The position numbers and the translations under genes were made by a program. A DNA stretch of 12,346 bases, taken from NCBI GenBank assembly GCA_040755715.1, contig JBFLXN010000014.1:1-12346 (forward strand), written 5' to 3'. The DNA comes from Candidatus Edwardsbacteria bacterium (GTDB taxonomy: Bacteria > Edwardsbacteria > AC1 > JBFLXN01). The notes beneath the pieces are model-generated. The model was not told the DNA's origin. It ran no database searches and was given only the letters and a program-made list of their open reading frames with translations. Numbering within the stretch: the first letter of the stretch is position 1; each line of letters begins with the position of its first letter. Below are positions 1-12,346 of this stretch, one piece after another.

Positions 1-331
1 CGAAATCCTCGGTTTTTACTAAAATTGCACCTCTTTGGATAAGCTTCGATATAATTTCATAATTTTTGCTGCCACCTTTCAGTCCCTCCTCAAGTATCTT
101 CTGGCCCATAGCCCCATCTGCAACCATTCCATCCTGATACACCTTAAAGTTAGCCACCTCTAATTTCTCAAAATATCTGGCTATTGAATCCCAGAAGCCA
201 GAGATAGTTTCTCTATGTTGCTTCCAAAACTTCTCCCCGAAACCTGCAATACCTCTTTTGTCCACCTGCCTAGCAATACTTCCAAGATCGGCACTCATGT
301 GGATGATTGGAACATAGATTAATTTTCGCAT
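1..331 (-). CDS. hypothetical protein, N-terminal 110 codons (gene continues past the left edge)
   Basis: This ORF is absent from the supplied track because it has no stop inside the window. Manual minus-strand translation from the ATG at 331-329 gives MRKLIYVPIIHMSADLGSIARQVDKRGIAGFGEKFWKQHRETISGFWDSIARYFEKLEVANFKVYQDGMVADGAMGQKILEEGLKGGSKNYEIISKLIQRGAILVKTEDF, open to position 1. The ATG overlaps the TAA of the upstream ORF (TAATG). No family recognised. Confidence 0.5.
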   Translation of the reverse strand, partial: MRKLIYVPIIHMSADLGSIARQVDKRGIAGFGEKFWKQHRETISGFWDSIARYFEKLEVANFKVYQDGMVADGAMGQKILEEGLKGGSKNYEIISKLIQRGAILVKTEDF

Positions 332-597
332 TATTTTCCTAATCCTTTAGCTTTTATTAAAAGTTCTGCTGTCTGTTTACGCAGGGTAGATATGGTTCTG
401 CAATTTTTACAATCCTCGTTTTTCTCATCATATTTTTCACAAGACAAAAGCATCTCCACCTCTTTCTTTAAGTGACTCGCCCTTTCGGCTTTATCAGTTA
501 CTGCCTTTGCCTCGTTGATATCGCGGGTCAATTCTTTAATGGTCCATTCCCTTTTTAGAAATATAGGGCACTTTATCTCTGGTTTTGGTTCTGCCAT
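331..597 (-). CDS. small hypothetical protein (88 aa, 4 Cys, charged and helical-looking)
   Basis: Track ORF. Its ATG at 597-595 overlaps the upstream TGA by 1 nt (TGATG), and its TAA overlaps the next ATG (TAATG), so it is translationally coupled on both sides. No family recognised. Confidence 0.55.
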   Translation of the reverse strand: MAEPKPEIKCPIFLKREWTIKELTRDINEAKAVTDKAERASHLKKEVEMLLSCEKYDEKNEDCKNCRTISTLRKQTAELLIKAKGLGK

Positions 598-1502
598 CAG
601 CGTTTAACCTCTGGGATCTGTTTTTCGCTTCCTAACTTCTGCAATCTGACCTCCAATATATTATTATGGTATCTTCTCACAATTCCTTCGCTGTCAACTT
701 TTGCTGGAAGAGAAACCTCTTCATAGTAGTTAGATTCGGGAGTTTTACAAGAGACGGTAAGTCTATCTTCATCTACCCCTAATAATATATCCTCTTCCTG
801 GGCACCTTTTAATTCCATAATGATGTTTAGATGGTCGCCTTCATCAAAGATATCCAATAACAATTCCTCTTTATCTTTTTTTAATTTATCCCCTCCGATA
901 ATCCACCAGCTAAACATAACTTTCTTTCCTGTGGATTCATCAATCTTACATCTTTGGAATACTAAAACCGGAAAACCTATCAGCTCTTGAGCCGTTGGAT
1001 TAATAATATTTCTTACCCTGTGGAGAATATCCATATGATTTGGCGCATTATAGCTGTGAGCCAATTCGTCAATGGTGGCATGTCTATTTTGCCAGACAAA
1101 AAGAAGTATATTTTGGCTCTCAGGATCTAACTCTTTGGCAATCTTATCTATTCCCTCTTGATTTATTTCCAATAGGCTTCTTTCAAATATCTTATTTTTC
1201 CACATCTCTACATCTTTTACCATAATCCAGGCCTTTGAAGCAGTTGCACCGCCTTGATTTCTATAAGAGATACAAAGGGCGTCCTTACTTCTTAATGTAA
1301 AACCCCTCTGTTGAATGCTGATTCCTTTTATATTTTCTAAGGACGTCTGGAATATAATCCTCGCCGGCTGCCAAAGAAAAAGCCTCAGGTTAGTCAGGTA
1401 CAGATGCCCTGGTTTCCAGCCGCTGCGTAGATTATCTTTGTAAAAACCCGGATCGCTTAGTATAACCTCTTCATTCGCTTTTAATTCAGGCTTATTTTTC
1501 AT
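597..1502 (-). CDS. PH/GRAM-like domain plus possible winged-helix module plus C-terminal alpha-crystallin (Hsp20) domain fusion protein
   Basis: The track ORF is 597-1598, and the codon at 1598 is TTG. The N-terminal motif GWKPGHLYLTNLRLFLWQ resembles bacterial PH/GRAM (G-x-LY-x-T-x-x-RL). The C-terminus, LLLDIFDEGDHLNIIMELKGAQEEDILLGVDEDRLTVS...VRRYHNNILEVRLQK, reads as an alpha-crystallin domain. The start is uncertain. ATG 1502 gives an 11-nt overlap with the upstream ORF. ATG 1565 is preceded by GGAAAG. TTG 1598 is the longest option. Confidence 0.8.
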   Translation of the reverse strand: MKNKPELKANEEVILSDPGFYKDNLRSGWKPGHLYLTNLRLFLWQPARIIFQTSLENIKGISIQQRGFTLRSKDALCISYRNQGGATASKAWIMVKDVEMWKNKIFERSLLEINQEGIDKIAKELDPESQNILLFVWQNRHATIDELAHSYNAPNHMDILHRVRNIINPTAQELIGFPVLVFQRCKIDESTGKKVMFSWWIIGGDKLKKDKEELLLDIFDEGDHLNIIMELKGAQEEDILLGVDEDRLTVSCKTPESNYYEEVSLPAKVDSEGIVRRYHNNILEVRLQKLGSEKQIPEVKR

Positions 1503-1767
1503 CTTTTCTGTAGTGTTTATAAGTAAAACCTGGATGTCTTGCACCACCGGGTTTGTTATCTTCATATTCTTTCCGTTTATATTTTGACCTTTTATCAAAT
1601 TCTACCCCTGTAGAATGTATTATCTGGGCATCTTCACCAGTTGAGTATTTAACCGAATATCTTCTTCTCTTTTTTGCCCACTCATCCCAGTCCATAGCTG
1701 TGGAGTGTCTCACCTTTGTGCCGCGGCCAGTAGAATACCCTGAAGTTTTAGGTGTCTTGGATTTCAT
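1492..1767 (-). CDS. small basic protein with four [HY]-S-T-[GA] repeats (hypothetical)
   Basis: ATG at 1767, preceded by AAGGGATAA (SD-like). The ORF fills what would otherwise be a ~180-nt gap in a compact operon. The motif occurs four times as GYSTG, HSTA, KYSTG and HSTG. Its codons differ mostly at wobble positions (CAT/TAC/CAC/TAT; TCT/TCA/TCC/TCT; ACA/ACT/ACA/ACT; GGG/GGT/GCT/GGC), which argues for selection at the protein level. Confidence 0.55.
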   Translation of the reverse strand: MKSKTPKTSGYSTGRGTKVRHSTAMDWDEWAKKRRRYSVKYSTGEDAQIIHSTGVEFDKRSKYKRKEYEDNKPGGARHPGFTYKHYRKDEK

Positions 1768-1782
1768 TTATCCCTTTTTTTC

Positions 1783-2355
1783 CTATTTCCATTTCCAATT
1801 ACAGGTCTTCCAATCATCAGGCACAGAAGGATGGTCTAAAATTCCTGTTTTCCCGCCTGCGTTATCAGTCTCCTTGACTACGTCCTCCTCGTCGACTTTG
1901 GGACTTTGCGGGGCAGGGGACGGAGCTTCCTCACATGGTTCATCTTGAGAGGAATCGAGGGCTTCAGCTGCTTCTTCCTCTTCTACGACCTCTTCGAAGA
2001 CTATCCCGCATTTCGGACAAACTGTTGTGTTTTCTTTTACGGCTGTGCCACAGCTCACACATTCATATCCTTCTATCTCTTCTACTTCTTTTTTGGTCTC
2101 TTCAGTGCCCATACTACCTCCAAGTTCTTTCTCGCCCTCGCCTTCGCCCTTAACCTGTTCTTCTCCCAAGGAAGTAATCCTGTATAAAGCAAACCTACCG
2201 GGCGAAAGCCTTTCTATATACCCTTTCTCCCACAATTTTTTGCATATATCATAGGCATAATTTATTGTAACCCTTAAGTTCCCGGCAATAGTTACGGTAT
2301 TTCCCTGTTTAATTTCCTTAAATTTTTCTAAAATCTTTTTCTCGTTAGGGGTCGT
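1783..2355 (-). CDS. winged-helix DNA-binding domain plus acidic linker plus zinc ribbon protein (putative regulator); non-canonical or damaged start
   Basis: The track ORF 1783-2235 begins at an internal TTG. The frame stays open upstream to the TAA at 2361-2359. That upstream part encodes the rest of a complete wHTH: TPNEKKILEKFKEIKQGNTVTIAGNLRVTINYAYDICKKLWEKGYIERLSPGRFALYRITSLGEE. A perfect SD, AAGGAGGT, lies at 2368-2361, with ACG 6 nt downstream at 2355-2353. There is no ATG, GTG or TTG between 2358 and 2236. The zinc ribbon is CVSCG-x11-CPKCG. Confidence 0.6.
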   Translation of the reverse strand, partial: TTPNEKKILEKFKEIKQGNTVTIAGNLRVTINYAYDICKKLWEKGYIERLSPGRFALYRITSLGEEQVKGEGEGEKELGGSMGTEETKKEVEEIEGYECVSCGTAVKENTTVCPKCGIVFEEVVEEEEAAEALDSSQDEPCEEAPSPAPQSPKVDEEDVVKETDNAGGKTGILDHPSVPDDWKTCNWKWK

Positions 2356-2405
2356 CTTTTACCTCCTTATGTTCTTGGTTATTATTCTATCCTTATGCCA
2401 ACATT

Positions 2406-2858
2406 TCAATATTCGATAGATACAGATTTCCACTTCTTTTCGGCTCTACTCCCTTTGCCTTGGCGCCCTACTTTTTCTTGAAGAGTAGTCAATCTATTGG
2501 GTCCACGATTACGAATTACCAACCACGACCCACGAGTAGGTCCAGATAATTTAATCTCGGCTCGAGAGTGAGGTCCGAGTTTTGTCTCCTCTAACACATC
2601 ACCTTCTAAGGTAAGCCTTCCATTTTCATCTATCCTGCCTTGACTTTCCATCATAGTAACTTCGAACTGTGAAAGGCGCGGGACCATGCTTTGCAGATGA
2701 TAAACAATCAAATATGGCCACCGCATGCTTCCTTTAATCCTTACTACTTTAATTCCCACTGGGCTTGCGAGATTTAATCCCGCTTCCCTTCGAATATTCG
2801 AAGGAATAGATAATCTACCCTCTTCATCAATTTCGCTAAATCCTTTTAACAGCGGCAT
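2406..2858 (-). CDS. tandem AbrB/SpoVT/MraZ-like (swapped-hairpin) domain protein, putative DNA-binding
   Basis: There are two copies of the D-x-x-GR-L/I signature. The first is [21 protein letters not shown] and the second is [21 protein letters not shown]. The ATG at 2858 overlaps the Hsp70 gene end by 23 nt. Confidence 0.7.
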
Positions 2859-4602
2859 CTTTTGTTTCTATCTTTAGATTTCTCTTTATCCGTTTAAACG
2901 CATTATAGACAATCTCAACCAGCTTTCTTAATTCATCAATTTTTACCCTGGTCTCTTTATATTCACCCTTGGATAAAGTTGTCTTTATTGCCAGGATTAG
3001 TTTCTCTATTTTTTCTACATCTGACCTATCTATTAGACCCTCTCCTTCTTCCAGAACCATCTCTGCTGCTTGTATCATACTTTCCGCTCGAATGCCCATT
3101 TGAATCTCTTCTTTTCGCTTTTGGTCTTCCTTGGCATGAATTCGGGCATCTTCTATCATCTCGTTAATCTGGTCCTTGGTCAGCCGGGAAGAAGAACTGA
3201 TCTGGATACTTTTTTCATTATCGGTATGTAAATCCAAGGCTCTGACTTGTAAAATCCCATTGGCATCTATATGGAATGTCACCTCAATCTGAGCTTCACC
3301 CCTTCGACCGGGTGGAATATCAGTAAGCTCAAACTTACCCAGACTTATATTATCGAAGCTCAGGAATCTCTCTCCCTGCAAGACATGGATATCGACCTGA
3401 GTCTGGTTATCTTTAGCTGTCGTAAATATCTGACTGCTGGATGTAGGAATGGTGGTATTTCTTTCTATGATCTTAGCAAATATCCCTCCCTCAGTCTCAA
3501 TTCCTAAAGAAAGGGGAGTAACGTCTAACAATACCACATCTTTTATTTCCCCAATCAAGATATTGGCTTGAATTGCTGCGCCAAGAGCCACTACCTCATC
3601 CGGATTTATATCCTTATAAGGTTCTTTGCCCAGAAGCTCTCGAGCGAGCTTTTGCACAGCAGGCATTCTGGTGGAGCCTCCTACCAAAACTACCCTGTCT
3701 ATCTGGCCGGGGTTGAGCTTTGCATCAGAAAGGACCTGTTTAGTAGGCTCTATCATCTTCTCTAATAAATCCCTGGTTAGCTCTTCAAACTGCTCTCTAC
3801 TCATAGTCAGATGCAGATCCATATCTTGTATGAGAAATGGGATTCTGATATCTGCAAACCTTTTTGTGGAAAGTTCTTTTTTTGCCTTCTCTGAAGCCTC
3901 TTTCAACCGCTGTAAAGCCACCCTATTTCTTCTTACATCCACTCCATGCAACTTCTGAAAATTATCAGCCAAATAATCCATTATCCTCTGGTCCCAATCA
4001 TCTCCGCCAAGATGTGTATTTCCCCCTACTGCCTTCACCTCAAACACGCCATTGCCCAACTCTAAAATAGATACATCGAAAGTGCCTCCACCCAAATCCC
4101 ATATTAGAATATAGTGTATATCCTGCTTGTGTAAGCCGTAGGCCAGGGAAGCAGCAGTAGGTTCATTTATAATCCGCATTACCTCTAATCCGGCTAAGGC
4201 GCCTGCCTCCATAGTCGCCTGGCGCTGGTTATCATTAAAATATGCAGGAACTGTAATTACTGCTTTCTCTATTTTCTCGCCCAAATAATCTTGCGCATCT
4301 TCCTTGACCTTACGAAGGATTAAGGCCGAAATCTCTTGGGGGGTAAATTTTCTCTCGTCAATCTCTACCCCATAATCAGTGCCCATCCGACGTTTAATAG
4401 ATGCAATGGTACGTTCTGGATTTGCAACTGCCTGGGTTCTGGCAAGATTGCCTATCAGCTGCCTCCCTCCATCGGCAAAGGCAACCACTGAAGGAGTAAG
4501 CCTTCCGCCTTCAGCATTGGGTATAATCTCAGGCCTCCCATTGTTTATAAAGGCGGCTACTGAAAAGGTAGTGCCTAAATCTATTCCTATTACCTTACTC
4601 AT
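2836..4602 (-). CDS. dnaK: Hsp70/DnaK-family chaperone paralog (588 aa)
   Basis: Hsp70 motifs present: [56 protein letters not shown] substrate-binding domain ([13 protein letters not shown]) and a helical lid are also present. The true start is the ATG at 4602-4600 ([12 protein letters not shown]), in an ATGA overlap with the upstream stop. The 34-aa extension in the track lies inside the upstream gene. Confidence 0.93.
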
Positions 4603-5672
4603 TTGGCTACCTGGGCTATTTTCTTCTTTAACCGTGGGCTGACCCAGCCGCAGTTTACGCAACCCTTTTCTAATAGCTCTAAGGCGTTTGCCTTTTTTCC
4701 GCATTGAGGGCAGGCTTCTGTTCTTTCTCTAAATGATATGATTCGGGTAAGCGCCCTCTCCCACTCATACATTCCCTCTCCTGAAAAAGAGGCAACCTTT
4801 CTTTGAGAACCACCTTCACCCAGCCCTTGCGCGCAAGAGCTGGGTTCATATATTACGTCAAAGACCTTTTTCTTCTTTAATACCGGGCTCAAATTCCTTA
4901 CATCTATAGCAGAACCTAATATCTTTTCTGAAGGGACTTCAAAAGCCAATCTCTTTTCAAAATCATACCACCAGCATAATCTCTTATTTGTTATATACAG
5001 ATGACCGGGCTTCCAGATACCATCTGATGAGGCCATATGCCAGGCCTTGCCCTTGTGAGTAATCGTTTCTCCTTCTGTCAGGAAATCTAATGTCTCTTCC
5101 TCATATTCGGGTAGAATAAGGTTTTCATCAATTATAAGTCCGCCTAACTTTATCGCCTCTTTTATAGACTCACCTAATTTATCTATCTCCACAGACCGCA
5201 GACGCGCTAATCTATCATCCTTAAGAATAAGTAAGAGCGTATCTTCTTGTATCAAGAGCCCCTTTATCTCATCTAAAGAGGTTTGAAACATCACTTCATT
5301 AAGCTCTTGATTCATGAGCAGCAGTCTTTTATCAGTTAAATAAATCTGCCCCGGTCTCCAACTAACATAGATTCCTTTGGCATAAAAAAAAGAGCCCAAC
5401 ATCTTAAGTTTAAGCTCTTCTCCCTGGATTAAAGAAATCTCTTTTTTAGCTCTATTATCTTTTTCCCAGGCGCGAATCTTCTCATCCCATGCCTTCATCA
5501 TGCCATACTCGAGCATAGTCTCCATGCCGGCCAGGGCGGCTCTTAAATTAACACCGATTAAAGGGATGCCCGCCACAGAGATGATAATGTCAGCGTTGAT
5601 CACCAACCCCTTATCCAGGACCCTATCCAATAAATCAACCAATGTGACCCGTGCATCTCTGGTTGGCTCCAT
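4599..5672 (-). CDS. GvpA/J/M-family (GvpM-like) N-terminal domain fused to two PH/GRAM-like domains and a C-terminal zinc ribbon
   Basis: The N-terminus [49 protein letters not shown] matches the gas-vesicle structural core (LxxVxDRxLDKGxV...). Two PH-like motifs follow, [15 protein letters not shown] and [16 protein letters not shown]. The C-terminus is [25 protein letters not shown]. The ATG at 5672 is preceded by AAGGAG. Confidence 0.85.
4815..4848. repeat. second copy of the 26-bp palindrome (one mismatch), flanked by direct ttca, inside the GvpM-like fusion CDS
   Basis: cccagcccttgcgcgcaagagctggg lies at 4819-4844, with ttca at 4815-4818 and 4845-4848. Element plus one flank is 30 nt, or 10 codons, so it is in frame. 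It encodes [10 protein letters not shown]. Confidence 0.7.
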
Positions 5673-5691
5673 ATGTCGCTTCGCTCCTTTA

Positions 5692-5733
5692 TCAGAATTC
5701 AGAAGTCAGATTTTTCTATCCTCTGTCCTCTGT
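5692..5733. promoter_or_regulatory. two sets of tandem heptamers in the 85-nt gap upstream of the GvpM-like fusion gene
   Basis: TCAGA occurs at 5692, 5699 and 5706, with a 7-bp period. cctctgt occurs twice in tandem at 5720-5733. Confidence 0.25.
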
Positions 5734-5757
5734 TACCTGTTTTTCTATGCTTTGGCT

Positions 5758-6522
5758 TTAGGCGAATGAGTATGGTGGCCAGGGGCCTGTAAATCGAACG
5801 ATCAACCCATTTTCTTTTTTAATCTTTTCTAAAACTTCGCCAAGCCTTTTGACATTTTCCTTAGCAACCAAACAGGATAAGTTCATGATCATCTGTAAGT
5901 TCTCATCTACTTTTTTAGCCTTATCTATATGAATATCAAAAACTTCTTTCTTTATCCGAGCATAAAAGTCCTTAAAATATTCATCGGCCTTTTTTCCCAT
6001 CTCTTTCCTTAATAGATTCTTTATCTTCTCTTCATACATATAGGCTGTGCCCGGTGGTTTAGACTTCAACTCCTCTTTCAAATTCTTAATCTCTGGGCTA
6101 TCTTCGGCTATTCTTTCAACCATAACCTTGGGATCCCATAAAATCTGGACTCCATATTCTTCTTTGCCCTTGACTTTATTTAATCTTTCTTTTAGATTCT
6201 GGTAATCTTTTTGCAGCCACTTTTTCATATTTTCTTTCGGGTCTATGCCTTCTTCGCCAATAATTATGGTATCAAATGCCAGAGGCAGGACAGTACCAAA
6301 CCTCTGCCAGGCATAATCCACTACCTTCTGGTGAGTCATTACCCAACCTTTTACAATATCTTTATCTTCTGATTCGTAGGGGTGAGGTTCACAGTTGTGA
6401 ACAACGGCTGAAATTTCCTGGTATGGAAGAGTGTAAACGTTGCTCCCATCAATTCCAATCTCACCCAGGCTTACCTTTTCGTTGCCATCAGCTATGCAGT
6501 AGAGATATATACCGTCGTTCAC
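5758..6522 (-). CDS. gvpF: gas vesicle protein GvpF/GvpL family
   Basis: N-terminus GIYLYCIADG, then VLPLAFDT, then C-terminal FTGPWPPYSFA, which together are typical of GvpF/L. The preferred start is the GTG at 6522-6520. It forms a GTGA overlap with the gvpK stop and is preceded by AAGGAGA with an 8-nt spacer. The track's ATG at 6549 lacks an SD and overlaps gvpK by 31 nt. Confidence 0.88.
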   Translation of the reverse strand: MNDGIYLYCIADGNEKVSLGEIGIDGSNVYTLPYQEISAVVHNCEPHPYESEDKDIVKGWVMTHQKVVDYAWQRFGTVLPLAFDTIIIGEEGIDPKENMKKWLQKDYQNLKERLNKVKGKEEYGVQILWDPKVMVERIAEDSPEIKNLKEELKSKPPGTAYMYEEKIKNLLRKEMGKKADEYFKDFYARIKKEVFDIHIDKAKKVDENLQMIMNLSCLVAKENVKRLGEVLEKIKKENGLIVRFTGPWPPYSFA

Positions 6523-6836
6523 TTGGCTGTCTCCTTTATTTTTTCCCATCTCGTGGGATTAGCTATTTTATCTATAACATCGTTGACTATATTATCTAAA
6601 CCATCTCTCACTGATTGAACTGCCTCACCAACCCCTTGTTCCTCTTTTATATGCTCTATTGCGACGTCGAGTTCCTTAAGCGCTCTACCCAGACGTTCTA
6701 TCTCTTCTTCGTTTAGGCTTCCACCCTCCATTCGCTTTACCGCCTGAAGTTTAAGGGCATCTCTGATTATTTCAACCAAGGCAAGCACAAGGCCTAAAAC
6801 ACCGCTTTTAAGATTATCTTCATTGATATCTATCAT
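6519..6836 (-). CDS. gvpK: gas vesicle protein GvpK
   Basis: GLVLALVEIIRDALKLQAVKRMEGGSLNEEEIERLGRAL matches the GvpK core as I remember it. The ATG forms an ATGA overlap with the upstream stop. Confidence 0.88.
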   Translation of the reverse strand: MIDINEDNLKSGVLGLVLALVEIIRDALKLQAVKRMEGGSLNEEEIERLGRALKELDVAIEHIKEEQGVGEAVQSVRDGLDNIVNDVIDKIANPTRWEKIKETAK

Positions 6837-7420
6837 TTTTCTATTTTTACTTCTAAAATCCCATTCTTGTATGTTTTTTCTAGTTTTCCTTTAGATTCGC
6901 AGGGTAGTTTTAATTGCTGATGGTACTTGCGATCAGGAATATCTACTGATATTGCAAGGCTGTCTTTGACTAAATCAATTTTTATATCCTTTTCTTCAAT
7001 GCCTGGTATTTCAGCAATCACTTTAATATGATCTTCCTCATCAAAGATATCCGCTGGCCGCTCTTGAGGTGTTGGAGGGGGTGAGGGTTTTACTTCTGGT
7101 CTCTGTTTAGCAAAAGGTTTTCCTCTAAAGGCCCTTCCTCTTATGCCCGGAGGGATGCCGCCGGGGATACCCGAAGGCCTTCCTTCAGCTCTTTTCAAAG
7201 GGGCTTCTTTTATCTTACGCTCCACCTCTTTATCAACCTCCTTAAGCCTCTCTTTGAAAGCCGGGGATTTCTCCAGGCCTTTAATTAATCCCCCTAATCC
7301 GGGAATTACCTTGCCCAGACCTTTAAGTATTCCTCCTGCTACACTTTCAGATTCTTTTTCTCCCGCCTCGGGCGGGACATCCTCTGGTCGCTTTTTGTCT
7401 TTATCTTCTTTACCGGTCAT
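6833..7420 (-). CDS. Hsp20/alpha-crystallin domain protein with a long Gly/Pro-rich N-terminal region
   Basis: The C-terminus reads as an alpha-crystallin domain: DIFDEEDHIKVIAEIPGIEEKDIKIDLVKDSLAISVD...LEKTYKNGILEVKIEK. The N-terminal region carries G-rich repeats (GGILKGLGKVIPGLGGLIKGLEK, GIPGGIPPGIRG). The ATG at 7420 is preceded by AAAGGTG. Confidence 0.85.
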   Translation of the reverse strand: MTGKEDKDKKRPEDVPPEAGEKESESVAGGILKGLGKVIPGLGGLIKGLEKSPAFKERLKEVDKEVERKIKEAPLKRAEGRPSGIPGGIPPGIRGRAFRGKPFAKQRPEVKPSPPPTPQERPADIFDEEDHIKVIAEIPGIEEKDIKIDLVKDSLAISVDIPDRKYHQQLKLPCESKGKLEKTYKNGILEVKIEK

Positions 7421-7468
7421 ATTCTACACCTTTCTTTAGCTTTACTTGTTAAGCTGCTAGCTTATTTC

Positions 7469-7819
7469 TCATTCTGCCTTTATATCTTTTGCCTTGGCGC
7501 TTACCCAGCCACACCAGGGACAGCCCTCATCAAGTAATTCTTCTGCCAGAACTTTTTTGCCGCACTGTGGACAAAGTTCTTTACCCTTCATGGCTTCTTT
7601 CCAGGCTTCTGTTTCCACATTAGTCCCTGATGGAAACTCAAGGCCATACTTTGCTGCTGTCTCAAAAGAAGCCAGGGCTGCCCTTATCTTAATTCCCAAA
7701 AGCTCTACTCCGGCAACAGATATGGCGATATCCGCATTAATCACCAGGCCTTTGTCTAAAACCCGGTCTATGACATCAACCAAAGTAACACTTGCATCTT
7801 TTGTCGCTTCTATTGCCAT
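7469..7819 (-). CDS. gvpJ: gas vesicle structural protein, GvpA/J/M family (GvpJ-like), with a C-terminal zinc ribbon
   Basis: [53 protein letters not shown] is the gas-vesicle core, and it looks J-like from memory of the haloarchaeal GvpJ sequence. The C-terminus is CPQCGKKVLAEELLDEGCPWCGWVS. The ATG at 7819 is preceded by AAGGAGG with an 8-nt spacer. Confidence 0.88.
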   Translation of the reverse strand: MAIEATKDASVTLVDVIDRVLDKGLVINADIAISVAGVELLGIKIRAALASFETAAKYGLEFPSGTNVETEAWKEAMKGKELCPQCGKKVLAEELLDEGCPWCGWVSAKAKDIKAE

Positions 7820-7832
7820 TTCTATTGCCTCC

Positions 7833-8225
7833 TTACCCCGCTACTACACCTTGGCCTTTACATTTGGGGCAAGCCACTGGATGAGGTTTGCGCGGATATA
7901 CCCCACTTCCATTGCAAGTGGTGCATTTTTTAGAAGGTGTCATCCTTGTAACCACCCCTACCCCACCACAGGCTAAACAGTGTATGCGACTTGTAGTATA
8001 TGGGTCTATTCCCTTGCCACCACAAAAATTGCATTTCATTGTCGGGCCAATAATTCTCACCTTACCTTTTCCTAAACACACCTGGCAATCAGAAAGCTTA
8101 GATAAAAGCTGAAAAGGATCTTTTCCTATTCCATTACAAAAGGCGCATATAACTTCCACTTTATTTTTTTCTATTCGCCTAAGCTCCTCAGGTGCAATCG
8201 TAGCCCATTTTGGTTTTTTAGCCAT
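7833..8225 (-). CDS. DnaJ-type cysteine-rich zinc-finger protein with six CxxCxGxG repeats and no J domain
   Basis: Six repeats: CAFCNGIG, CQVCLGKG, CNFCGGKG, CLACGGVG, CTTCNGSG, CPKCKGQG. No HPD motif is present. The ATG at 8225 is preceded by GAGGAGGTG. Confidence 0.85.
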   Translation of the reverse strand: MAKKPKWATIAPEELRRIEKNKVEVICAFCNGIGKDPFQLLSKLSDCQVCLGKGKVRIIGPTMKCNFCGGKGIDPYTTSRIHCLACGGVGVVTRMTPSKKCTTCNGSGVYPRKPHPVACPKCKGQGVVAG

Positions 8226-8262
8226 CTTTCACCTCCTCACCTTCGGCTGGTCGGGGTTAGCA

Positions 8263-8320
8263 GTTATTAGTTATAAGTTATGTATTTTTAACTGATAACT
8301 TATAACCCGTAATCCATAAC
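8263..8320. promoter_or_regulatory. inverted arrays of GTTAT/ATAAC half-sites with 7-bp phasing (operator-like); includes a 12-bp perfect inverted repeat and a candidate promoter
   Basis: gttat occurs at 8263, 8270 and 8277; ataac occurs at 8295, 8302 and 8316. The perfect inverted repeat is gttataagttat (8270-8281) paired with ataacttataac (8295-8306), with a 13-nt loop. On the minus strand, TTATCA (8298-8293), a 17-nt spacer and TATAAC (8275-8270) resemble -35 and -10 boxes. The site lies in the 100-nt gap upstream of the zinc-finger gene. Confidence 0.35.
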
Positions 8321-8325
8321 TTTTT

Positions 8326-8901
8326 TTACCTTCTCTTCTTCTTGGGTTTCCCTTTGGTCTCTTTAGTCTTCTCCTTTATCTCTTCTTTTTCCTCCAAATC
8401 TTTTATGCGCTTCTTAAGTTCTGCCTCTTTTGTCTTAAAATCATCCCCAGTTATTTCAGCTCTCTCAAAACGCATTTTAAGCTCGAGGATTTCTTCTTCT
8501 AAGGCGACCTTAGGGTCTTTTTCTTCTTCAGCCTGCGCTCCCACTGCGGCAGTGATTCCTTTGACCATCTCTACTGGTTGATATGGCGCTGAAATTAGCT
8601 TACCCAAGAATCTAAATAACCCTATATCCTTTGGCCGTTCCAACTTGCGCCTTCTAATGGCTGGTACATTAGATATTCCCCATTTCTTAGTTGGCATCAT
8701 ACCCCAATATTTGGGAATAGTAATATTGGGTTTAGCGCTTACTAGGGGAATAGGTTTAGAAACCAAGGGAATCTCTTTACTAACCAGCGGAATAGCGCTT
8801 GCTACTTGGGGCATAGCCTTACTAACCGATGGTAAGCTACCCGCAGTAAAAGGAATGAATTTGGCTTCTTTCTTGTTAGATTTTTTCTTTTTGGGAGACA
8901 T
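8326..8901 (-). CDS. GvpG-like protein with an N-terminal [ILM]P-x-V-[SA]-K heptad-repeat extension and a Lys-rich tail
   Basis: The C-terminal half, LFRFLGKLISAPYQPVEMVKGITAAVGAQAEEE...LEEEILELKMRFERAEITGDDFKTKEAELKKRIKDLEE, parallels the canonical GvpG at 11444-11728. Compare LELKMRFERAEI here with LELQMRFEMGEV there. The N-terminal repeats are LPSVSKA, MPQVASA, IPLVSKE, IPLVSKP and IPLVSAKP. Confidence 0.78.
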   Translation of the reverse strand: MSPKKKKSNKKEAKFIPFTAGSLPSVSKAMPQVASAIPLVSKEIPLVSKPIPLVSAKPNITIPKYWGMMPTKKWGISNVPAIRRRKLERPKDIGLFRFLGKLISAPYQPVEMVKGITAAVGAQAEEEKDPKVALEEEILELKMRFERAEITGDDFKTKEAELKKRIKDLEEKEEIKEKTKETKGKPKKKRR

Positions 8902-8930
8902 CTTCCCTCCGCTCTTTTTTATATTTATAT

Positions 8931-10895
8931 TTATCCATATATTTCCTTAGAAAAATCCTTTAATCGGTCAATACCTTTGATCTGATAAGGGAAAAGCGGC
9001 AGCTGACCAATTTGATATTGCGAAGACCTTTCCCTCTCTATTTCCTGGATAATCTTAATCTGCTCACCTCTTTTTGACTCGCAAAAATTACATCTAGTTT
9101 TCGGAAGAATCATATTAACCAGAATATAATGAGAGGGGATGTTAAGTCGCTTAAGGTTCTCAAGGAGGCCGTCCATCTCACTCTTGCCCATAGCCTCTGG
9201 AATACCTACAACCACAAATTGACACCTCGCCGGATCTGTGAGAATCTCCTGTATTTTTCTCACCTTCTTAGAAAACTCTATCATCTCTTCAGCCTGTTTG
9301 GCCAATCGTACTATCCCCTTATATTTTATAAGTAATTTAAATATTGCATTTAGCCACTCCCTGGCAACCTGAGGCATCTCTAGAAACCGCAATAGGTGTC
9401 CTGTAGCTGCTGAATCTAAGATATATATATCAAATTTTCCTCCATCTATAAATTCCACCACCTTAGCTAAAGCCATAATCTCATCCAAACCGGGAGGAGT
9501 AAGTGAGATAAGTTCCTCTAAAATCTCCCTATCGAACTTAACATCCACTCCACCTCCGATAAATTTACTAAATACCTCGCTTATTTGGTCTTTATAATCC
9601 TTTTTAAAATTCTCAAGCAACTTCAAAGCATCTATCTCCAGGGCAAATAGATTATTGGGGACAGTCTCCTTCGGGGACAGTCCCCCTATCTGAGTGAGAT
9701 TATCTCCAATAGATAGACCAAAACTATCGGATAGCGAATGGGCAGGGTCGGTAGAAAAGACTAAGACTTTTTTAGAGGGGTATTTTTTGGCCATACTAAG
9801 TGCAGTGGCTGAAGCTATGGATGTTTTACCCACCCCACCTTTTCCCCCAAATATATATAATATAATGCCTTTCTCTATTAATTGAGGCAATTTAATAATA
9901 GAGAAAATCTTAGACTTGAAATCAAAAGGTTTCTTTCCAATGGGAAGGCGATGTGGCTTCTCTTCAAATAAAACCTGGGCATATTCCTTTAGTCGATCCA
10001 TCCCTCTGATTTGATATGGAAATATCGGTATCTGATGAAGTTCGAGATTTGCGAATTTTTGCCTGATTATATCTAATTCTTTCTTTTGTTCTTTCTCTTC
10101 CTTAGAACAAAAGGGACACCTGTTTTGACTACTTTTAATTTGATTGACGATAATAGATTTCACTGAAATTCCATATCCTTTTAATATCGCCAACAACCTT
10201 TCTGTCTCTTCTATAGCCAAGGTCTCGGGTTTAGTGACAGGTATAAATTCTGTTGAATCGCGGTTCTTTAGTAACCGACTTACTCTATCCACGTCGCTTT
10301 TCACCATCTCTAAAAATTCATCAGCGTCGTCTTTTTTGTATTTGCCAGCAAAATGGCTGGCTAAAAATCTATGCTTAGATTGCATCAAATCTAAAACTTC
10401 GACCCACTTTTTCATCTGAAGGGGTAAACCTAAAAGCCTTATGGTATGTCCTGTAGGTGCGGTGTCCAAGATGATTAAATCGTATTTCTCTTCTCTTAAG
10501 ATATTAGCTATTTTTATAACCGCCATTATCTCATCTAACCCTGGAATAGAAAGGGAAAAGAAATTCTCTATATCTTGCCTGTCGAAATAAGTTCCTCTCT
10601 CAACGATCTTTTTCATCACCAAATCATATTTCTTTTTAAAAAGAGAGGCCTCTTCCTCAGCTTTTATTTCTAAAGCCCAAAGATTGTTTAAATCTTTTAT
10701 GGGTGTAATGGTATTACCAACAGTATAGCCCAAACTATCACCCACTGAATGAGCAGGGTCACAGGATACAATCAAAATCCTCTGCTTGGGATAATGTTGG
10801 GCTAAATAAAGGCCAGTAGCAGTCGCTGATGTAGTTTTTCCGCAACCCCCCTTTCCACCAAAGATTATTAGACGCCGCTTCTCGCTGATTTTCAT
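8931..10895 (-). CDS. tandem-fused ArsA/Get3 (TRC40)-family ATPase (654 aa, two homologous halves)
   Basis: Half 1 has GGKGGCGKTT, CDPAHSVGDSLG, DTAPTGHTIRLLGLP and a CPFC motif. Half 2 has GGKGGVGKTS, TDPAHSLSDSFG, DSAATGHLLRFLEMP and a CNFC motif. Each half ends in a matching tail: IPIFPYQIRGMDRLKEY in half 1 and LPLFPYQIKGIDRLKDF in half 2. ATG at 10895. Confidence 0.92.
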   Translation of the reverse strand: MKISEKRRLIIFGGKGGCGKTTSATATGLYLAQHYPKQRILIVSCDPAHSVGDSLGYTVGNTITPIKDLNNLWALEIKAEEEASLFKKKYDLVMKKIVERGTYFDRQDIENFFSLSIPGLDEIMAVIKIANILREEKYDLIILDTAPTGHTIRLLGLPLQMKKWVEVLDLMQSKHRFLASHFAGKYKKDDADEFLEMVKSDVDRVSRLLKNRDSTEFIPVTKPETLAIEETERLLAILKGYGISVKSIIVNQIKSSQNRCPFCSKEEKEQKKELDIIRQKFANLELHQIPIFPYQIRGMDRLKEYAQVLFEEKPHRLPIGKKPFDFKSKIFSIIKLPQLIEKGIILYIFGGKGGVGKTSIASATALSMAKKYPSKKVLVFSTDPAHSLSDSFGLSIGDNLTQIGGLSPKETVPNNLFALEIDALKLLENFKKDYKDQISEVFSKFIGGGVDVKFDREILEELISLTPPGLDEIMALAKVVEFIDGGKFDIYILDSAATGHLLRFLEMPQVAREWLNAIFKLLIKYKGIVRLAKQAEEMIEFSKKVRKIQEILTDPARCQFVVVGIPEAMGKSEMDGLLENLKRLNIPSHYILVNMILPKTRCNFCESKRGEQIKIIQEIERERSSQYQIGQLPLFPYQIKGIDRLKDFSKEIYG

Positions 10896-10949
10896 CTGCG
10901 TTCATCTGATTTCCGGTGATATCTACGTTTATCTACGTTATTCTACTTC
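10891..10949. repeat. 10-bp-phased direct repeats spanning the gvpO end and the ATPase start
   Basis: ttcatctg occurs at 10891 and 10901. atctacgtt occurs at 10921 and 10931, with a degenerate ttctacttc at 10941. The first pair duplicates the ATG context (CAGATGAA twice on the minus strand). Confidence 0.4.
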
Positions 10950-11207
10950 AACTGTCTCGGTATCCGCCCTCTTTCTTAACCTTGTCCGATTAAATTCCAT
11001 TACATTGCCATCGTCATCCAAAATTACCTCATAGGTGGCTAAGATATCCATCTGGTCAGGAATGGAGTGCTTTTCTATCATCTCCATAGTAACCTTCCAG
11101 CCTTTTTCATCCTTAGCCGCCCCTAAAGTAGTAGAAAGTTCCAGTCCTGTAAACCTACTCAATTCCTCACGAGCCTTCTCAATAATCTGTTGCATTGTCT
11201 TCGCCAT
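10938..11207 (-). CDS. gvpO: gas vesicle protein GvpO
   Basis: The pattern AREELSRFTGLELSTTLGAAKDEKGWKVTMEMIEKHSIPDQMDILATYEVILDDDGNVMEFNRTRLRKR matches my recollection of the GvpO family (...G-W-x-V-x-x-E-x-x-E...P...D-x-LA-x-YEV-x-LD..G.......R). The ATG is preceded by AAGGAGGT with a 7-nt spacer. Confidence 0.82.
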   Translation of the reverse strand: MAKTMQQIIEKAREELSRFTGLELSTTLGAAKDEKGWKVTMEMIEKHSIPDQMDILATYEVILDDDGNVMEFNRTRLRKRADTETVEVE

Positions 11208-11232
11208 CTTTTATACCTCCTTTTTTAAAAAG

Positions 11233-11439
11233 TTATAGTTTCCTTTTAATCTTAGCCCCACAGGAAGGGCAGAATGCATAACCATAAATATACCGCCACC
11301 TTGCCCCACATTCCTGACATTCGATATTTAAGGGTTCTCCGCATTCTGAACAAAACCGCAGATTCCCCCAGGTTACACTTCCGCATCGAGGGCACCTAAA
11401 TGCACCTTTTGGTAGTGCTGGTTCTATTCTTTCTTCCAC
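11233..11439 (-). CDS. double zinc-ribbon protein (68 aa)
   Basis: Four CxxC pairs: CPRCG, CSECG, CQECG, CPSCG. The GTG start at 11439 is preceded by GGAGGTG with a 5-nt spacer. Confidence 0.72.
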   Translation of the reverse strand: MEERIEPALPKGAFRCPRCGSVTWGNLRFCSECGEPLNIECQECGARWRYIYGYAFCPSCGAKIKRKL

Positions 11440-11443
11440 ATTC

Positions 11444-11728
11444 TCACCTCCTCTCCTCTTTGTATTTCCTGATTGCCTCTAATCTTTCCAGGATTTTTCC
11501 TTCTTTCTTTTTATATTCCTCTTCGTTCACCTCGCCCATCTCAAAGCGCATCTGAAGTTCTAGCAACTCTTCCTGCACTTTAGACTCATCGGTCACCTCA
11601 GTCTCGGCTGTCTCCTTTAGTTTATTTCCGATCCATACCACCCCCTTTATAGGCAACAAAAAAGGCAATAAAATATCGGTTAATCCAAAACCCGATCCTT
11701 TAGAACCACTCTCAGGCTTTTCCTTCAC
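11444..11728 (-). CDS. gvpG: gas vesicle protein GvpG
   Basis: LTDILLPFLLPIKGVVWIGNKLKETAETEVTDESKVQEELLELQMRFEMGEVNEEEYKKKEGKILERLEAIRK fits the GvpG pattern. The present start is the GTG at 11728-11726, in a GTGA overlap created by the inserted element. See the findings for details. Confidence 0.85.
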   Translation of the reverse strand: MKEKPESGSKGSGFGLTDILLPFLLPIKGVVWIGNKLKETAETEVTDESKVQEELLELQMRFEMGEVNEEEYKKKEGKILERLEAIRKYKEERR

Positions 11729-12020
11729 CCCGCCCTTCCTTTCCTTGCAATGCCAAGTCTAGATTTTAATCTTGCCAAACCACTTCCGAACTTCTTCAAG
11801 CTTTTTTCCCTTTCAAATGCCACATCTTTAGATCTATAGGCCTCAAAATATATTAACTCCACTGGTAACATCTTTCTAGTTGAATATATCTTTCCTTGCT
11901 TATGCTCCATTAACCTTTTTTTCAAGTTATTCGTACATCCTATATAAATCCAGTCTTTAACTTTACTACTGAGTAAATATATATAATGCCAATTAGGCTT
12001 TTTAGGAAGGGCGGGGTTCA
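11724..12020 (-). mobile_element. putative miniature autonomous element: TTCA | 12-bp TIR | GIY-YIG ORF | 12-bp TIR | TTCA
   Basis: The plus strand has ccccgcccttcc at 11728-11739 and its perfect reverse complement ggaagggcgggg at 12005-12016. Direct ttca copies flank these at 11724-11727 and 12017-12020. The ORF start (xTG) and stop (TGA) both fall within the flanking TGAA copies. Confidence 0.5.
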
Positions 12021-12021
12021 C
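11725..12021 (-). CDS. small GIY-YIG nuclease family protein (98 aa)
   Basis: WHYIYLLSSKVKDWIYIGCTNNLKKRLMEHKQG...ELIYFEAY...AFEREKSLKK carries the GIY/YIG motifs, the conserved Arg, the Glu and the RE-x-x-x-K signature. Start is the GTG at 12021 and stop is the TGA at 11727-11725. The ORF is bounded by 12-bp inverted repeats. Confidence 0.85.
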   Translation of the reverse strand: MNPALPKKPNWHYIYLLSSKVKDWIYIGCTNNLKKRLMEHKQGKIYSTRKMLPVELIYFEAYRSKDVAFEREKSLKKFGSGLARLKSRLGIARKGRAG

Positions 12022-12176
12022 CCTGCCCTTCCTTTTCTCGCAATGCCAAGCCTATATTCAATTTGGCTAAACTGTTTTTGCATTTCTTTAAAATCTTTGC
12101 CCTGCCCTTAAGCTTAAAATGTGGGATTTACCCAGCCCTTGCGCGCAAGGGCTGGGTTTAGGAAGGGCGGGGTTCA
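12017..12176 (-). mobile_element. degenerate, internally deleted tandem copy of the GIY-YIG element
   Basis: The TIRs are ccctgcccttcc at 12021-12032 (one mismatch) and ggaagggcgggg at 12161-12172, with flanking ttca at 12017-12020 and 12173-12176. The copy keeps the first 7 codons (ATG AAC CCC GCC CTT CCT AAA = MNPALPK). It also keeps the last 11 codons plus stop (RLGIARKGRAG*), which differ from the intact copy only synonymously. Its interior is disrupted by stops and a 26-bp palindrome. Confidence 0.45.
12127..12160. repeat. 26-bp perfect palindrome cccagcccttgcgcgcaagggctggg flanked by direct ttta
   Basis: The palindrome spans 12131-12156 and is exactly self-complementary. Direct ttta copies sit at 12127-12130 and 12157-12160. 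It is GC-rich in an AT-rich context. Confidence 0.7.
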
Positions 12177-12346
12177 TAACTTTCTCCTTCAAGTACAATT
12201 ACTAATTCTACAAAGTTACATGGAGGTACAGGTCCAACGTATTTGAACTTTATCCTTCCATCATAAATTGTGCTTAGTCTATCTACTAATCTATCAAATT
12301 CTTCCACCCGGGGCTTTTCTACCAAGAAAGCTAAGTTTGTTATCAT
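12158..12346 (-). CDS. gas vesicle protein GvpF/GvpL family, C-terminal 62 codons (gene starts beyond the right edge)
   Basis: LAFLVEKPRVEEFDRLVDRL...IKFKYVGPVPPCNF parallels the FTGPWPPYSF end of the other GvpF/L gene. The last codons (YEPRPS) and the stop lie inside inserted repeat sequence. Confidence 0.82.
   Translation of the reverse strand: MITNLAFLVEKPRVEEFDRLVDRLSTIYDGRIKFKYVGPVPPCNFVELVIVLEGESYEPRPS

Follow-up and report, generated by a model that had tools for sequence, protein, structure and literature searches.

Hsp70, Get3-like and small heat-shock protein genes within a gas-vesicle gene cluster on a contig labelled Candidatus Edwardsbacteria

Does a gas-vesicle gene cluster that encodes its own chaperones use them for the folding and delivery of its shell proteins? 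This question is raised by a stretch of 12,346 nucleotides (nt) from an assembly labelled Candidatus (Ca.) Edwardsbacteria (contig JBFLXN010000014.1, positions 1 to 12,346; the whole stretch is called the window in the following). There, gas-vesicle (gvp) genes stand together with genes for an Hsp70, a DnaJ-type zinc-finger protein, small heat-shock proteins (sHsps) and a tandem ArsA/Get3 ATPase. The original prediction, made from the letters of the sequence, proposed a dedicated holdase/foldase/targeting system. Comparative sequence analysis supports this idea, as related clusters encode upstream a GvpF/L protein in fusion with an HPD-containing J domain (GvpF/L-J) and the ATPase appears to be of the Get3 type. 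The window is probably the distal part of a gas-vesicle supercluster of ~25-30 kb, a size taken from the relatives, which would carry a dedicated proteostasis network in addition to the usual Gvp proteins.

The solubility and shell insertion of the extremely hydrophobic GvpA-family subunits are at issue here, for which a chaperone-like role of GvpF and GvpG has so far been inferred from interaction screens (PMC11445434). GvpF binds GvpA, GvpL binds GvpJ and GvpM, and GvpF was proposed as a chaperone of shell proteins (PMC9501494, PMC11445434). In E. coli the aggregation of GvpA is proteotoxic, which limits heterologous gas vesicles and their expression as ultrasound reporters (PMC12848028).

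Gvp and chaperone genes of the window

Gene identities were assigned by Pfam and NCBIfam profile searches over the open reading frames (ORFs) of the window. All 19 genes lie on the minus strand, as does every ORF of meaningful length in the ORF listing, which bears out the predicted co-directional array; the order of transcription reads from 12346 to 1. The GC content is ~0.40 along the whole window and the GC skew is uniformly negative. The Gvp and chaperone genes are listed below in order of transcription (aa, amino acids).

12158-12346, minus: C-terminal end of a GvpF/L protein, the third F/L paralogue of the cluster (PF06386, E 7e-11); leaves the window
11444-11728, minus: GvpG, 94 aa (PF05120, E 7e-24), with a GTG start from the target duplication of an insertion
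10938-11207, minus: GvpO (PF05800, E 2e-18)
8931-10895, minus: tandem two-domain ATPase of the Get3/TRC40/ArsA family, 654 aa (PF02374, E 2e-139)
8326-8901, minus: long GvpG paralogue, 191 aa (PF05120, E 2e-9, residues 102-167)
7833-8225, minus: stand-alone DnaJ-type zinc-finger protein, 130 aa (PF00684, 43.4 bits, cutoff 32.7, E 4e-11)
7469-7819, minus: GvpJ-like protein of the GvpA/J/M family with C-terminal zinc ribbon (PF00741, E 9e-17)
6833-7420, minus: small heat-shock protein (Hsp20), 195 aa (PF00011, 24.2 bits, cutoff 20.8; NF041800, E 2e-20)
6519-6836, minus: GvpK (PF05121, E 8e-19)
5758-6549, minus: complete GvpF/L (PF06386, E 4e-65)
4599-5672, minus: GvpM-like protein, 357 aa (PF00741, E 5e-17; weak GRAM match; top NCBIfam match GvpM, 97 bits)
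2836-4602, minus: Hsp70 of the DnaK type, 588 aa (PF00012, E 1e-214)
597-1565, minus: three-domain protein with PH/GRAM-like, winged-helix and alpha-crystallin domains, 322 aa (NF041800, E 2e-19)

The accessory core of gvpF/L, G, J, K, M and O is present and co-oriented, with all members above the Pfam gathering scores, and each of the predicted Gvp assignments (two F/L, two G, O, K, J-like and M-like) found support in the hidden Markov model searches. The GvpJ and GvpM calls are best NCBIfam matches that lie below the haloarchaeal 'exception' cutoffs of that library. The GvpJ-like protein, which shows a CPQC...CPWC motif, reaches 98 bits with the GvpJ model compared to 57 bits with the GvpA model. 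Its assignment as the GvpA of the cluster was rejected, since it scores best as GvpJ and relatives carry a separate canonical GvpA. In the GvpM-like protein the GvpM-like domain precedes two PH/GRAM-like domains, and a zinc ribbon forms the C-terminus; the PH-like regions (~residues 90-310) cross-match the PH-like domain of the three-domain protein. The long GvpG paralogue exhibits a repeat-rich N-terminal extension in front of its GvpG domain. For the complete GvpF/L a gene call in the locus L007 points towards a start at 6522, and the GvpF/L fragment at the window edge is 95% identical to L001:9000-9182, with its last residues altered by a mobile element described below.

The C-termini of the GvpJ-like (7469-7570) and GvpM-like (4599-4710) proteins are homologous zinc ribbons of the form CPQCGKK...GCxxCGW. 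This fusion is kept from Nitrospirota to Desulfobacterota and Actinomycetota, and the shared ribbon may serve as a docking handle.

Neighbouring genes overlap by 1-23 nt at 7 of the 18 junctions, among them 4-nt overlaps of the Hsp20 stop with GvpK, of the GvpK stop with GvpF/L and of the GvpM-like stop with the Hsp70 start. At the other junctions gaps of 4-236 nt occur, and the proposed translational coupling thus holds for a part of the array. A scan of the window for promoters and terminators gave the same counts as shuffled sequence and is uninformative on operon structure; an Rfam scan at gathering thresholds gave zero matches. All genes named originally are present. Overlooked had been the GIY-YIG insertion, the PH/GRAM-like domains and the zinc ribbons on the GvpJ-like and GvpM-like proteins, as well as the genes for a double zinc-ribbon and an AbrB-like protein and, at the 3' end, three further conserved genes. 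In agreement with the prediction, GvpA, GvpN and GvpC were not found within the window in the profile searches, and the cluster continues beyond both edges, as the GvpF/L gene (12158-12346) and the gene at 1-331 both leave the window.

Related loci and the GvpF/L-J fusion

The combined gvp and chaperone gene order recurs in 14 distinct related loci. An ArsA-protein scan of species-representative genomes gave six loci, whose gene order was compared to the window by tblastn with every window protein. The loci referred to here are assigned as follows.

L001-3, L009: Nitrospirota/Thermodesulfovibrionales
L004-6: Desulfobacterota
L010: Ca. Scalindua rubra (MAYW01000009)
L011: Euphemobacter-type
L016: Ca. 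Hakubella (Actinomycetota)
L012-14, L018-19: other metagenome or genome contigs

Three metagenome-assembled genomes (MAGs) of the Nitrospirota/Thermodesulfovibrionales type show the same order as the window at 60-100% identity, and three Desulfobacterota MAGs a rearranged but clearly homologous set at 43-72% identity. In all six ArsA-scan loci the Hsp70 gene directly follows the GvpM-like gene, and Ca. Hakubella thermalkaliphila encodes a homologue of the Hsp70 with 65% identity in the same cluster context. A chance juxtaposition of chaperone and gvp genes, which would have spoken against the original prediction, is excluded because the same gene order occurs in distantly related phyla, where the chaperones are kept inside the gvp clusters.

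Upstream of the region corresponding to the window, L001 encodes two ATPases, a GvpN-like one (AAA_5) and a Cdc48-like one (double AAA+), together with a TPR protein, small winged-helix proteins and a further Hsp20. It also encodes a GvpF/L protein carrying a J domain at its C-terminus (PF06386, 2e-61; PF00226, 1e-11), a fusion likewise found in L004. A search with this GvpF/L-J protein gave 563 homologues. Among the top 120 protein clusters 119 contain both domains, the exception being a truncated fragment, and the HPD motif is present in 118 of these 120, the two exceptions being truncated as well. Their source labels comprise Nitrospirota, Thermodesulfovibrionales, Omnitrophica, Atribacteria, Ca. 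Euphemobacter, Ca. Scalindua rubra, Dehalococcoidales and Marinimicrobia. Found upstream in every related cluster examined, GvpF/L-J provides the cognate J-domain partner with HPD motif for the Hsp70, and it is usually accompanied by cluster-encoded Hsp70, Cdc48, sHsps and Get3-like ATPase. The fusion would physically tie a binder of GvpA-family proteins to Hsp70 and is the likely link between the Gvp clients and this chaperone. Occurring naturally in more than 100 protein clusters with its HPD motif, it constitutes independent evolutionary evidence for GvpF/L as a client adaptor.

Nine neighbourhoods were centred on the GvpF/L-J gene, a selection that is unbiased with respect to Hsp70. Their content is as follows.

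Cdc48-like ATPase: 9 of 9 loci
J domain: 9 of 9 loci
Hsp20: 9 of 9 loci
Tandem ArsA: 8 of 9 loci, absent from L019
Hsp70: 5 of 9 loci (L008, L009, L011, L014, L019)

The contig of L010 ends too early to judge the presence of Hsp70, and in L012 and L018 the examined range closes with a second ArsA, short of any position where an Hsp70 could follow. In L013, which stops after gvpM, the J domain occurs without a cluster Hsp70.

The loci L012, L013 and L019 begin with canonical gvpA genes, one or two per locus, which encode proteins of 67-70 aa and lie 7-9 kb upstream of GvpF/L-J; in L012 and L019 a sigma-54 activator precedes them. We take these GvpA proteins to be closely similar to cyanobacterial GvpA. 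GvpN-like AAA_5 genes, often two, are located upstream in L001/L008, L002, L010-14, L018 and L019. In the closest relative, L008, GvpA was not seen in the upstream sequence, which ends near the contig edge. Two database proteins, P0121 (100% identical to the Hsp70 of the window) and P0002 (a GvpF/L-J, 95% identical to that of L001), have the same listed source, a 27,293-bp contig of a MAG labelled Ca. Edwardsbacteria.

Apart from this, many related clusters (L008:656-1573 and 4361-5242, L011, L014, L018) were observed to carry two GvpN-like AAA_5 ATPases. Between these paired genes lie genes for a ~250-aa CxxCxGxG/CHP02642 protein, a protein of ~350-435 aa, a 56-aa AbrB/MazE-like protein and a ~130-aa protein, all of which are conserved. 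In Ca. Scalindua rubra a gene matching the Pfam family Volactin (actin family; L010:11599-12651) is located between GvpF/L-J and the next GvpF/L. Finally, the source MAG is labelled Ca. Edwardsbacteria, yet the closest relatives of the cluster (85-100% identity) are Nitrospirota/Thermodesulfovibrionales MAGs; either the contig was mis-binned or the cluster was recently transferred.

Parts of this architecture have been described. Castillo & Saier (2010, PMC2963123) reported two-domain ArsA and hsp20 genes inside gvp clusters of Bacteroidetes/Chlorobi, Geobacter, cyanobacteria and an acidobacterium, with Polaribacter irgensii, Pelodictyon luteolum, Geobacter uraniireducens and Anabaena/Nostoc among the organisms, and attributed energising and chaperone functions in biogenesis to them. 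As in the window, a tandem ArsA of ~640 aa and Hsp20 are found there among gvpF/L, G, J, K, M, N and O, without ars genes. In contrast, Hsp70, a J domain on GvpF/L, a Cdc48-like ATPase, CxxCxGxG proteins, zinc-ribbon/PH fusions on GvpJ/GvpM and the Get3-type CxxC are not mentioned in that work, whereas the window and its relatives have all of them. The original view that the chaperones are foreign to the known gvp set is therefore only partly correct, as it does not hold for ArsA and Hsp20. A search of the gas-vesicle literature, with most subscription journals outside its reach, gave no account of Hsp70, J-domain fusion, Cdc48 or zinc-finger components. A 2022 review of Gvp proteins leaves Hsp20, Hsp70, DnaK and ArsA unmentioned, and public databases label the proteins only as 'GvpL/GvpF family' or 'molecular chaperone DnaK'. 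New compared to the literature searched is the expanded, chaperone-equipped type of gvp cluster, which is widespread in uncultured anaerobes and of which GvpF/L-J is the most informative new element.

Canonical clusters (Halobacterium gvpACNO/DEFGHIJKLM, B. megaterium gvpB-U, Anabaena gvpACNJKFGVW, Serratia 39006) share the core of GvpF/L, G, J, K, M(S), O, N and A and, as here, GvpF/L proteins as binders of A/J/M-family proteins. They differ in that chaperoning is ascribed to the Gvp proteins GvpF, G and H; general ATP-dependent chaperones are not encoded in these clusters, and GvpF/L lacks a J domain.

Chaperone components, a proposed relay and competing explanations

The predicted Hsp70 paralog proved to be an intact protein of the DnaK type. 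It reaches 792 bits with NF001413 (cutoff 648) and 774 bits with TIGR02350, below the cutoff of 822.55, and according to NCBIfam it scores best as DnaK and not as HscA. Geobacillus DnaK (2v7y) is the top solved relative and aligns end to end; the identity to E. coli DnaK is 48%. Full-length alignments to both proteins show conserved motifs for nucleotide binding, linker and substrate binding, in line with the Hsp70 build of actin-like nucleotide-binding domain, linker, substrate-binding domain and lid. The start was set at the ATG at 4602 on the evidence of the DnaK alignments and of gene calls in relatives. A 622-aa ORF that begins 34 codons upstream inside the gvpM-like gene was rejected as a listing artefact; its additional part (4603-4704) is lysine/arginine-rich.

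Compared to E. coli DnaK, the Hsp70 lacks a 24-aa insert, with a clean gap at E. coli residues 76-99. Such an insert is typical of DnaK in diderm bacteria. Since it is also missing in the Nitrospirota and Desulfobacterota copies, this gap, the only evidence in this respect, suggests that the Hsp70 gene travels with the gvp cluster and has a separate origin.

The tandem ATPase, also in line with the original prediction, contains two P-loops (deviant Walker A), two switch II motifs (DTAPTGH) and a CxxC motif per half. In the alignment with archaeal Get3 (3ug6, 3zq6), CPFC at residues 260-263 coincides with the CxxC of the latter, and CNFC at residues 602-605 is located at the equivalent place of the second half. 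With 463 bits the protein passes TIGR00345 (cutoff 135). The Pfam family name 'anion-transporting ATPase' would favour an arsenite-efflux ATPase with an incidental position in the cluster. Both arsenical-pump models are failed, however, TIGR04291 with 223 bits against an equivalog cutoff of 650 and NF041417 with 354 against 800. The top solved relatives are Chlamydomonas ARSA1 (5zme) and archaeal Get3, which match far better than E. coli ArsA; arsB, acr3, arsD and arsR were not found in any locus examined. The constant position of the gene in eight of the nine loci centred on GvpF/L-J and the previously noted gvp association of ArsA (PMC2963123) speak against arsenite efflux as well, which we regard as hardly credible. 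By its motifs and profile scores, the cluster ArsA is of the Get3 type rather than of the arsenic-pump type.

Three further proteins are candidates for holdases. The zinc-finger protein shows, as predicted, six CxxCxGxG repeats (at residues 27, 47, 65, 83, 101 and 119), which are predicted to suffice for three zinc centres. An assignment as DnaJ proper was rejected in view of the missing J domain, G/F region and C-terminal client-binding domains and of 37 bits with TIGR02349 (cutoff 377). The two alpha-crystallin proteins of the prediction were also recovered. In the Hsp20 a Gly/Pro-rich N-terminal region precedes the alpha-crystallin domain (ACD), and the three-domain protein remains just under the PF00011 cutoff (19.4 versus 20.8). 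An AlphaFold2 model of the latter, built from 56 homologues of a family with 141 matches, has a predicted local distance difference test (pLDDT) value of 82 and resolves a PH-like beta-sandwich, a winged helix and an ACD. The modelled ACD superposes on that of Sulfolobus Hsp20.1 with a TM-score of 0.84, and PH-like structures were also matched (Foldseek). The protein is kept beside Hsp70 in several phyla. Its winged helix might possibly take part in transcriptional regulation in response to unassembled subunits, too.

Shown here are the gene identities, the intact catalytic and zinc motifs, the GvpF/L-J fusion with its conserved HPD and a gene order kept in different phyla; the binding partners, the order of hand-over and the formation of functional gas vesicles in this organism we infer. 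The most hydrophobic stretches among the window proteins are the GvpM and GvpJ hairpins, and the most hydrophobic segments encoded by the whole cluster would be the beta-hairpins of GvpA, GvpJ and GvpM. After synthesis, these would be captured by the GvpF/L adaptors. GvpF/L-J would hand its bound client to the cluster Hsp70, whose gene is translationally coupled to the gvpM-like gene, and trigger the ATPase of this Hsp70. The sHsps, the PH-winged-helix-ACD protein and the six-repeat zinc-finger protein may act as ATP-independent holdases that buffer unassembled subunits, and the Get3-like pseudo-dimer could, in cycles that depend on ATP, shield hydrophobic segments or bring them to the growing shell. 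Recycling or insertion of subunits would fall to GvpN and the Cdc48-like unfoldase, both encoded upstream. As a tentative generalisation, for which we see somewhat less than an even chance, GvpF/L proteins may be client-delivering co-chaperones of Hsp70, and shell assembly in a widespread lineage of clusters from anaerobes may be an ATP-driven relay of GvpF/L-J, a dedicated Hsp70, a Get3-like hairpin carrier and a Cdc48-like recycler.

Single elements of this proposal resemble known systems. In iron-sulfur cluster assembly by HscA/HscB a J-domain adaptor delivers one class of clients to the Hsp70 of the same operon. A dedicated J-domain adaptor and an Hsp70 are likewise encoded together here, with the difference that the cluster Hsp70 is best matched by DnaK and the J domain is fused to a GvpF/L fold instead of an HscB-type domain. 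With Get3/TRC40 proteins (ARSA1, 5zme; archaeal 3ug6 and 3zq6) the ATPase shares P-loop, switch II and CxxC, and as in ARSA1 the pseudo-dimer arises from a tandem duplication. Different from these, Get1/2 or Get4/5 partners and a tail-anchored client are not encoded nearby, and the client would presumably be a hydrophobic beta-hairpin protein that goes into a gas-facing protein shell and not into a lipid bilayer. The zinc-finger protein is, like plant BSD2 and Bacillus anti-TRAP, a small CxxCxGxG-only protein without J domain (PF00684 and PF15777 matches), but contains six repeats instead of four, and the similarity is confined to the repeat motif. BSD2 is a holdase for an aggregation-prone intermediate of Rubisco assembly.

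Several points weigh against the proposed network. The link from the chaperones to gas vesicles rests on comparative evidence, and GvpA, GvpN, Cdc48 and GvpF/L-J lie outside the window and are placed upstream on the basis of the relatives. A GrpE-type exchange factor gave no match in profile searches of the window and of the scanned upstream proteins; its gene may lie elsewhere, or the factor may be one of the cluster proteins without family match, for instance one of two such proteins in the gene tail described below. Membrane-spanning or tail-anchor-like segments are present in none of the window proteins, and neither a tail-anchored client for a Get3-type factor nor a membrane-receptor-like gene for Get3 is evident in the window. 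The homologue set of the Hsp70 comprised close relatives of at least 62% identity. Moreover, the modules are facultative: L013 lacks Hsp70, L019 lacks ArsA, and none is strictly required. Together with the lack of a match for GrpE, the dispensability of Hsp70 and ArsA in some relatives limits how far each individual step can be trusted.

Alternatively, the chaperones might form a general stress module that is located beside the gvp genes or co-regulated with them and serves the whole proteome and not the Gvp proteins, with gas vesicles being formed under stress. Merino et al. (2020), who noted gvp genes and hsp20 in the Ca. Hakubella genome and nothing more, read the latter as a sign of heat-shock induction. 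The nearly canonical character of the Hsp70, which passes the NF001413 model, and the variable presence of the chaperone modules among the loci would fit this explanation. We consider it unlikely, as the chaperone genes are interleaved with gvp genes and not merely adjacent, the Hsp70 gene overlaps the gvpM-like gene, more than 100 protein clusters have the J domain joined directly to GvpF/L and the cluster Hsp70 stands outside the usual hrcA-grpE-dnaK-dnaJ context. The lack of the diderm-type insert despite hosts among Nitrospirota and Desulfobacterota, suggesting a transfer together with the cluster, points in the same direction.

It is similarly improbable that the cluster builds no classical gas vesicles, being either a decaying remnant or the source of a different structure based on GvpJ and GvpM, with the fusions marking a changed function. 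GvpA is found neither in the window nor in the available upstream sequence of the closest Nitrospirota contig, a mobile element has inserted into the operon, zinc-ribbon/PH fusions on GvpJ-like and GvpM-like proteins are unusual, and for the listed host lineages gas vesicles are predicted here from the genes. Against this stand the intact state of all ORFs, an insertion which spares both flanking genes and even supplies the GTG start of gvpG, and homologous clusters with the same fusions (L012, L013, L019) that begin with a canonical GvpA.

If a chaperone relay for shell assembly holds true, it would provide the first example in which Get3-type and Hsp70 machinery has been co-opted for insertion into a gas-facing protein shell instead of a membrane, and modules moved to other hosts would relieve the proteotoxicity limiting engineered gas vesicles. 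A genome-mining study from 2023 regarded non-gvp genes in the clusters as a burden to be avoided (PMC10344784); contrary to this view, some of them may make the assembly efficient. According to Supplementary Table 1 of Hurt et al. (2023), a 23.5 kb cluster of Desulfobacterium vacuolatum DSM 3385 (FWXY01000008:1268-24724) gave gas vesicles in E. coli at 30 C. We note that this size fits the expanded architecture and that L004-L006 come from the family of this organism. Should its cluster share the architecture, an experimental system already exists.

Mobile element and remaining genes

The remaining features of the window are listed below.

11725-12157, minus: composite mobile element of ~445 bp, boundaries from the alignment with L001 and L009
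11725-12021, minus: GIY-YIG nuclease ORF of this element, 98 aa (PF01541, E 4e-14)
11233-11439, minus: double zinc-ribbon protein with four CxxC, 68 aa (PF12773, E 4e-9)
2406-2858, minus: tandem AbrB/MraZ-like protein, 150 aa (weak PF02381, E 1e-4)
1783-2235, minus: zinc-ribbon protein with acidic tail, 128-150 aa (zinc-ribbon Pfam matches)
331-597, minus: 88-aa protein without Pfam or NCBIfam match, 39% identical to L019:19673-19912 in the same position
1-331, minus: first 110 codons of a conserved cluster protein of ~225-256 aa; leaves the window

The GIY-YIG element has terminal inverted repeats of 12 bp (CCCCGCCCTTCC / GGAAGGGCGGGG), its target duplication is TGAA, and it consists of a ~150-bp deletion derivative without ORF in tandem with the nuclease-encoding unit. 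It is inserted exactly where gvpF/L and gvpG overlap in relatives. The ATG of gvpG is thereby exchanged for GTG and the last residues of GvpF/L are altered, while both genes stay intact. The element was found in this window only and is absent from all related loci compared. An independent Logan assembly breaks at this position, as expected of a repeated element.

The double zinc-ribbon gene has the same position in L001-3, L009-12, L014, L016, L018 and L019. The tandem AbrB/MraZ-like protein, likely a regulator, matches the 56-aa AbrB/MazE-like genes (weak PF04014) that come after gvpN in relatives (L011, L014, L012, L018, L019). For the zinc-ribbon protein at 1783-2235 no homologue was found in the other loci compared, which makes it lineage-specific among them. 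Homologues of the protein at 1-331 occur in L004-6, L013, L016 and L019, and the full-length homologue is without Pfam match. Together with the PH-winged-helix-ACD protein, the proteins of ~90 aa and 225-256 aa form a conserved three-gene tail after Hsp70 (window 1-597; L019:18645-20615; L004:2551-3321).

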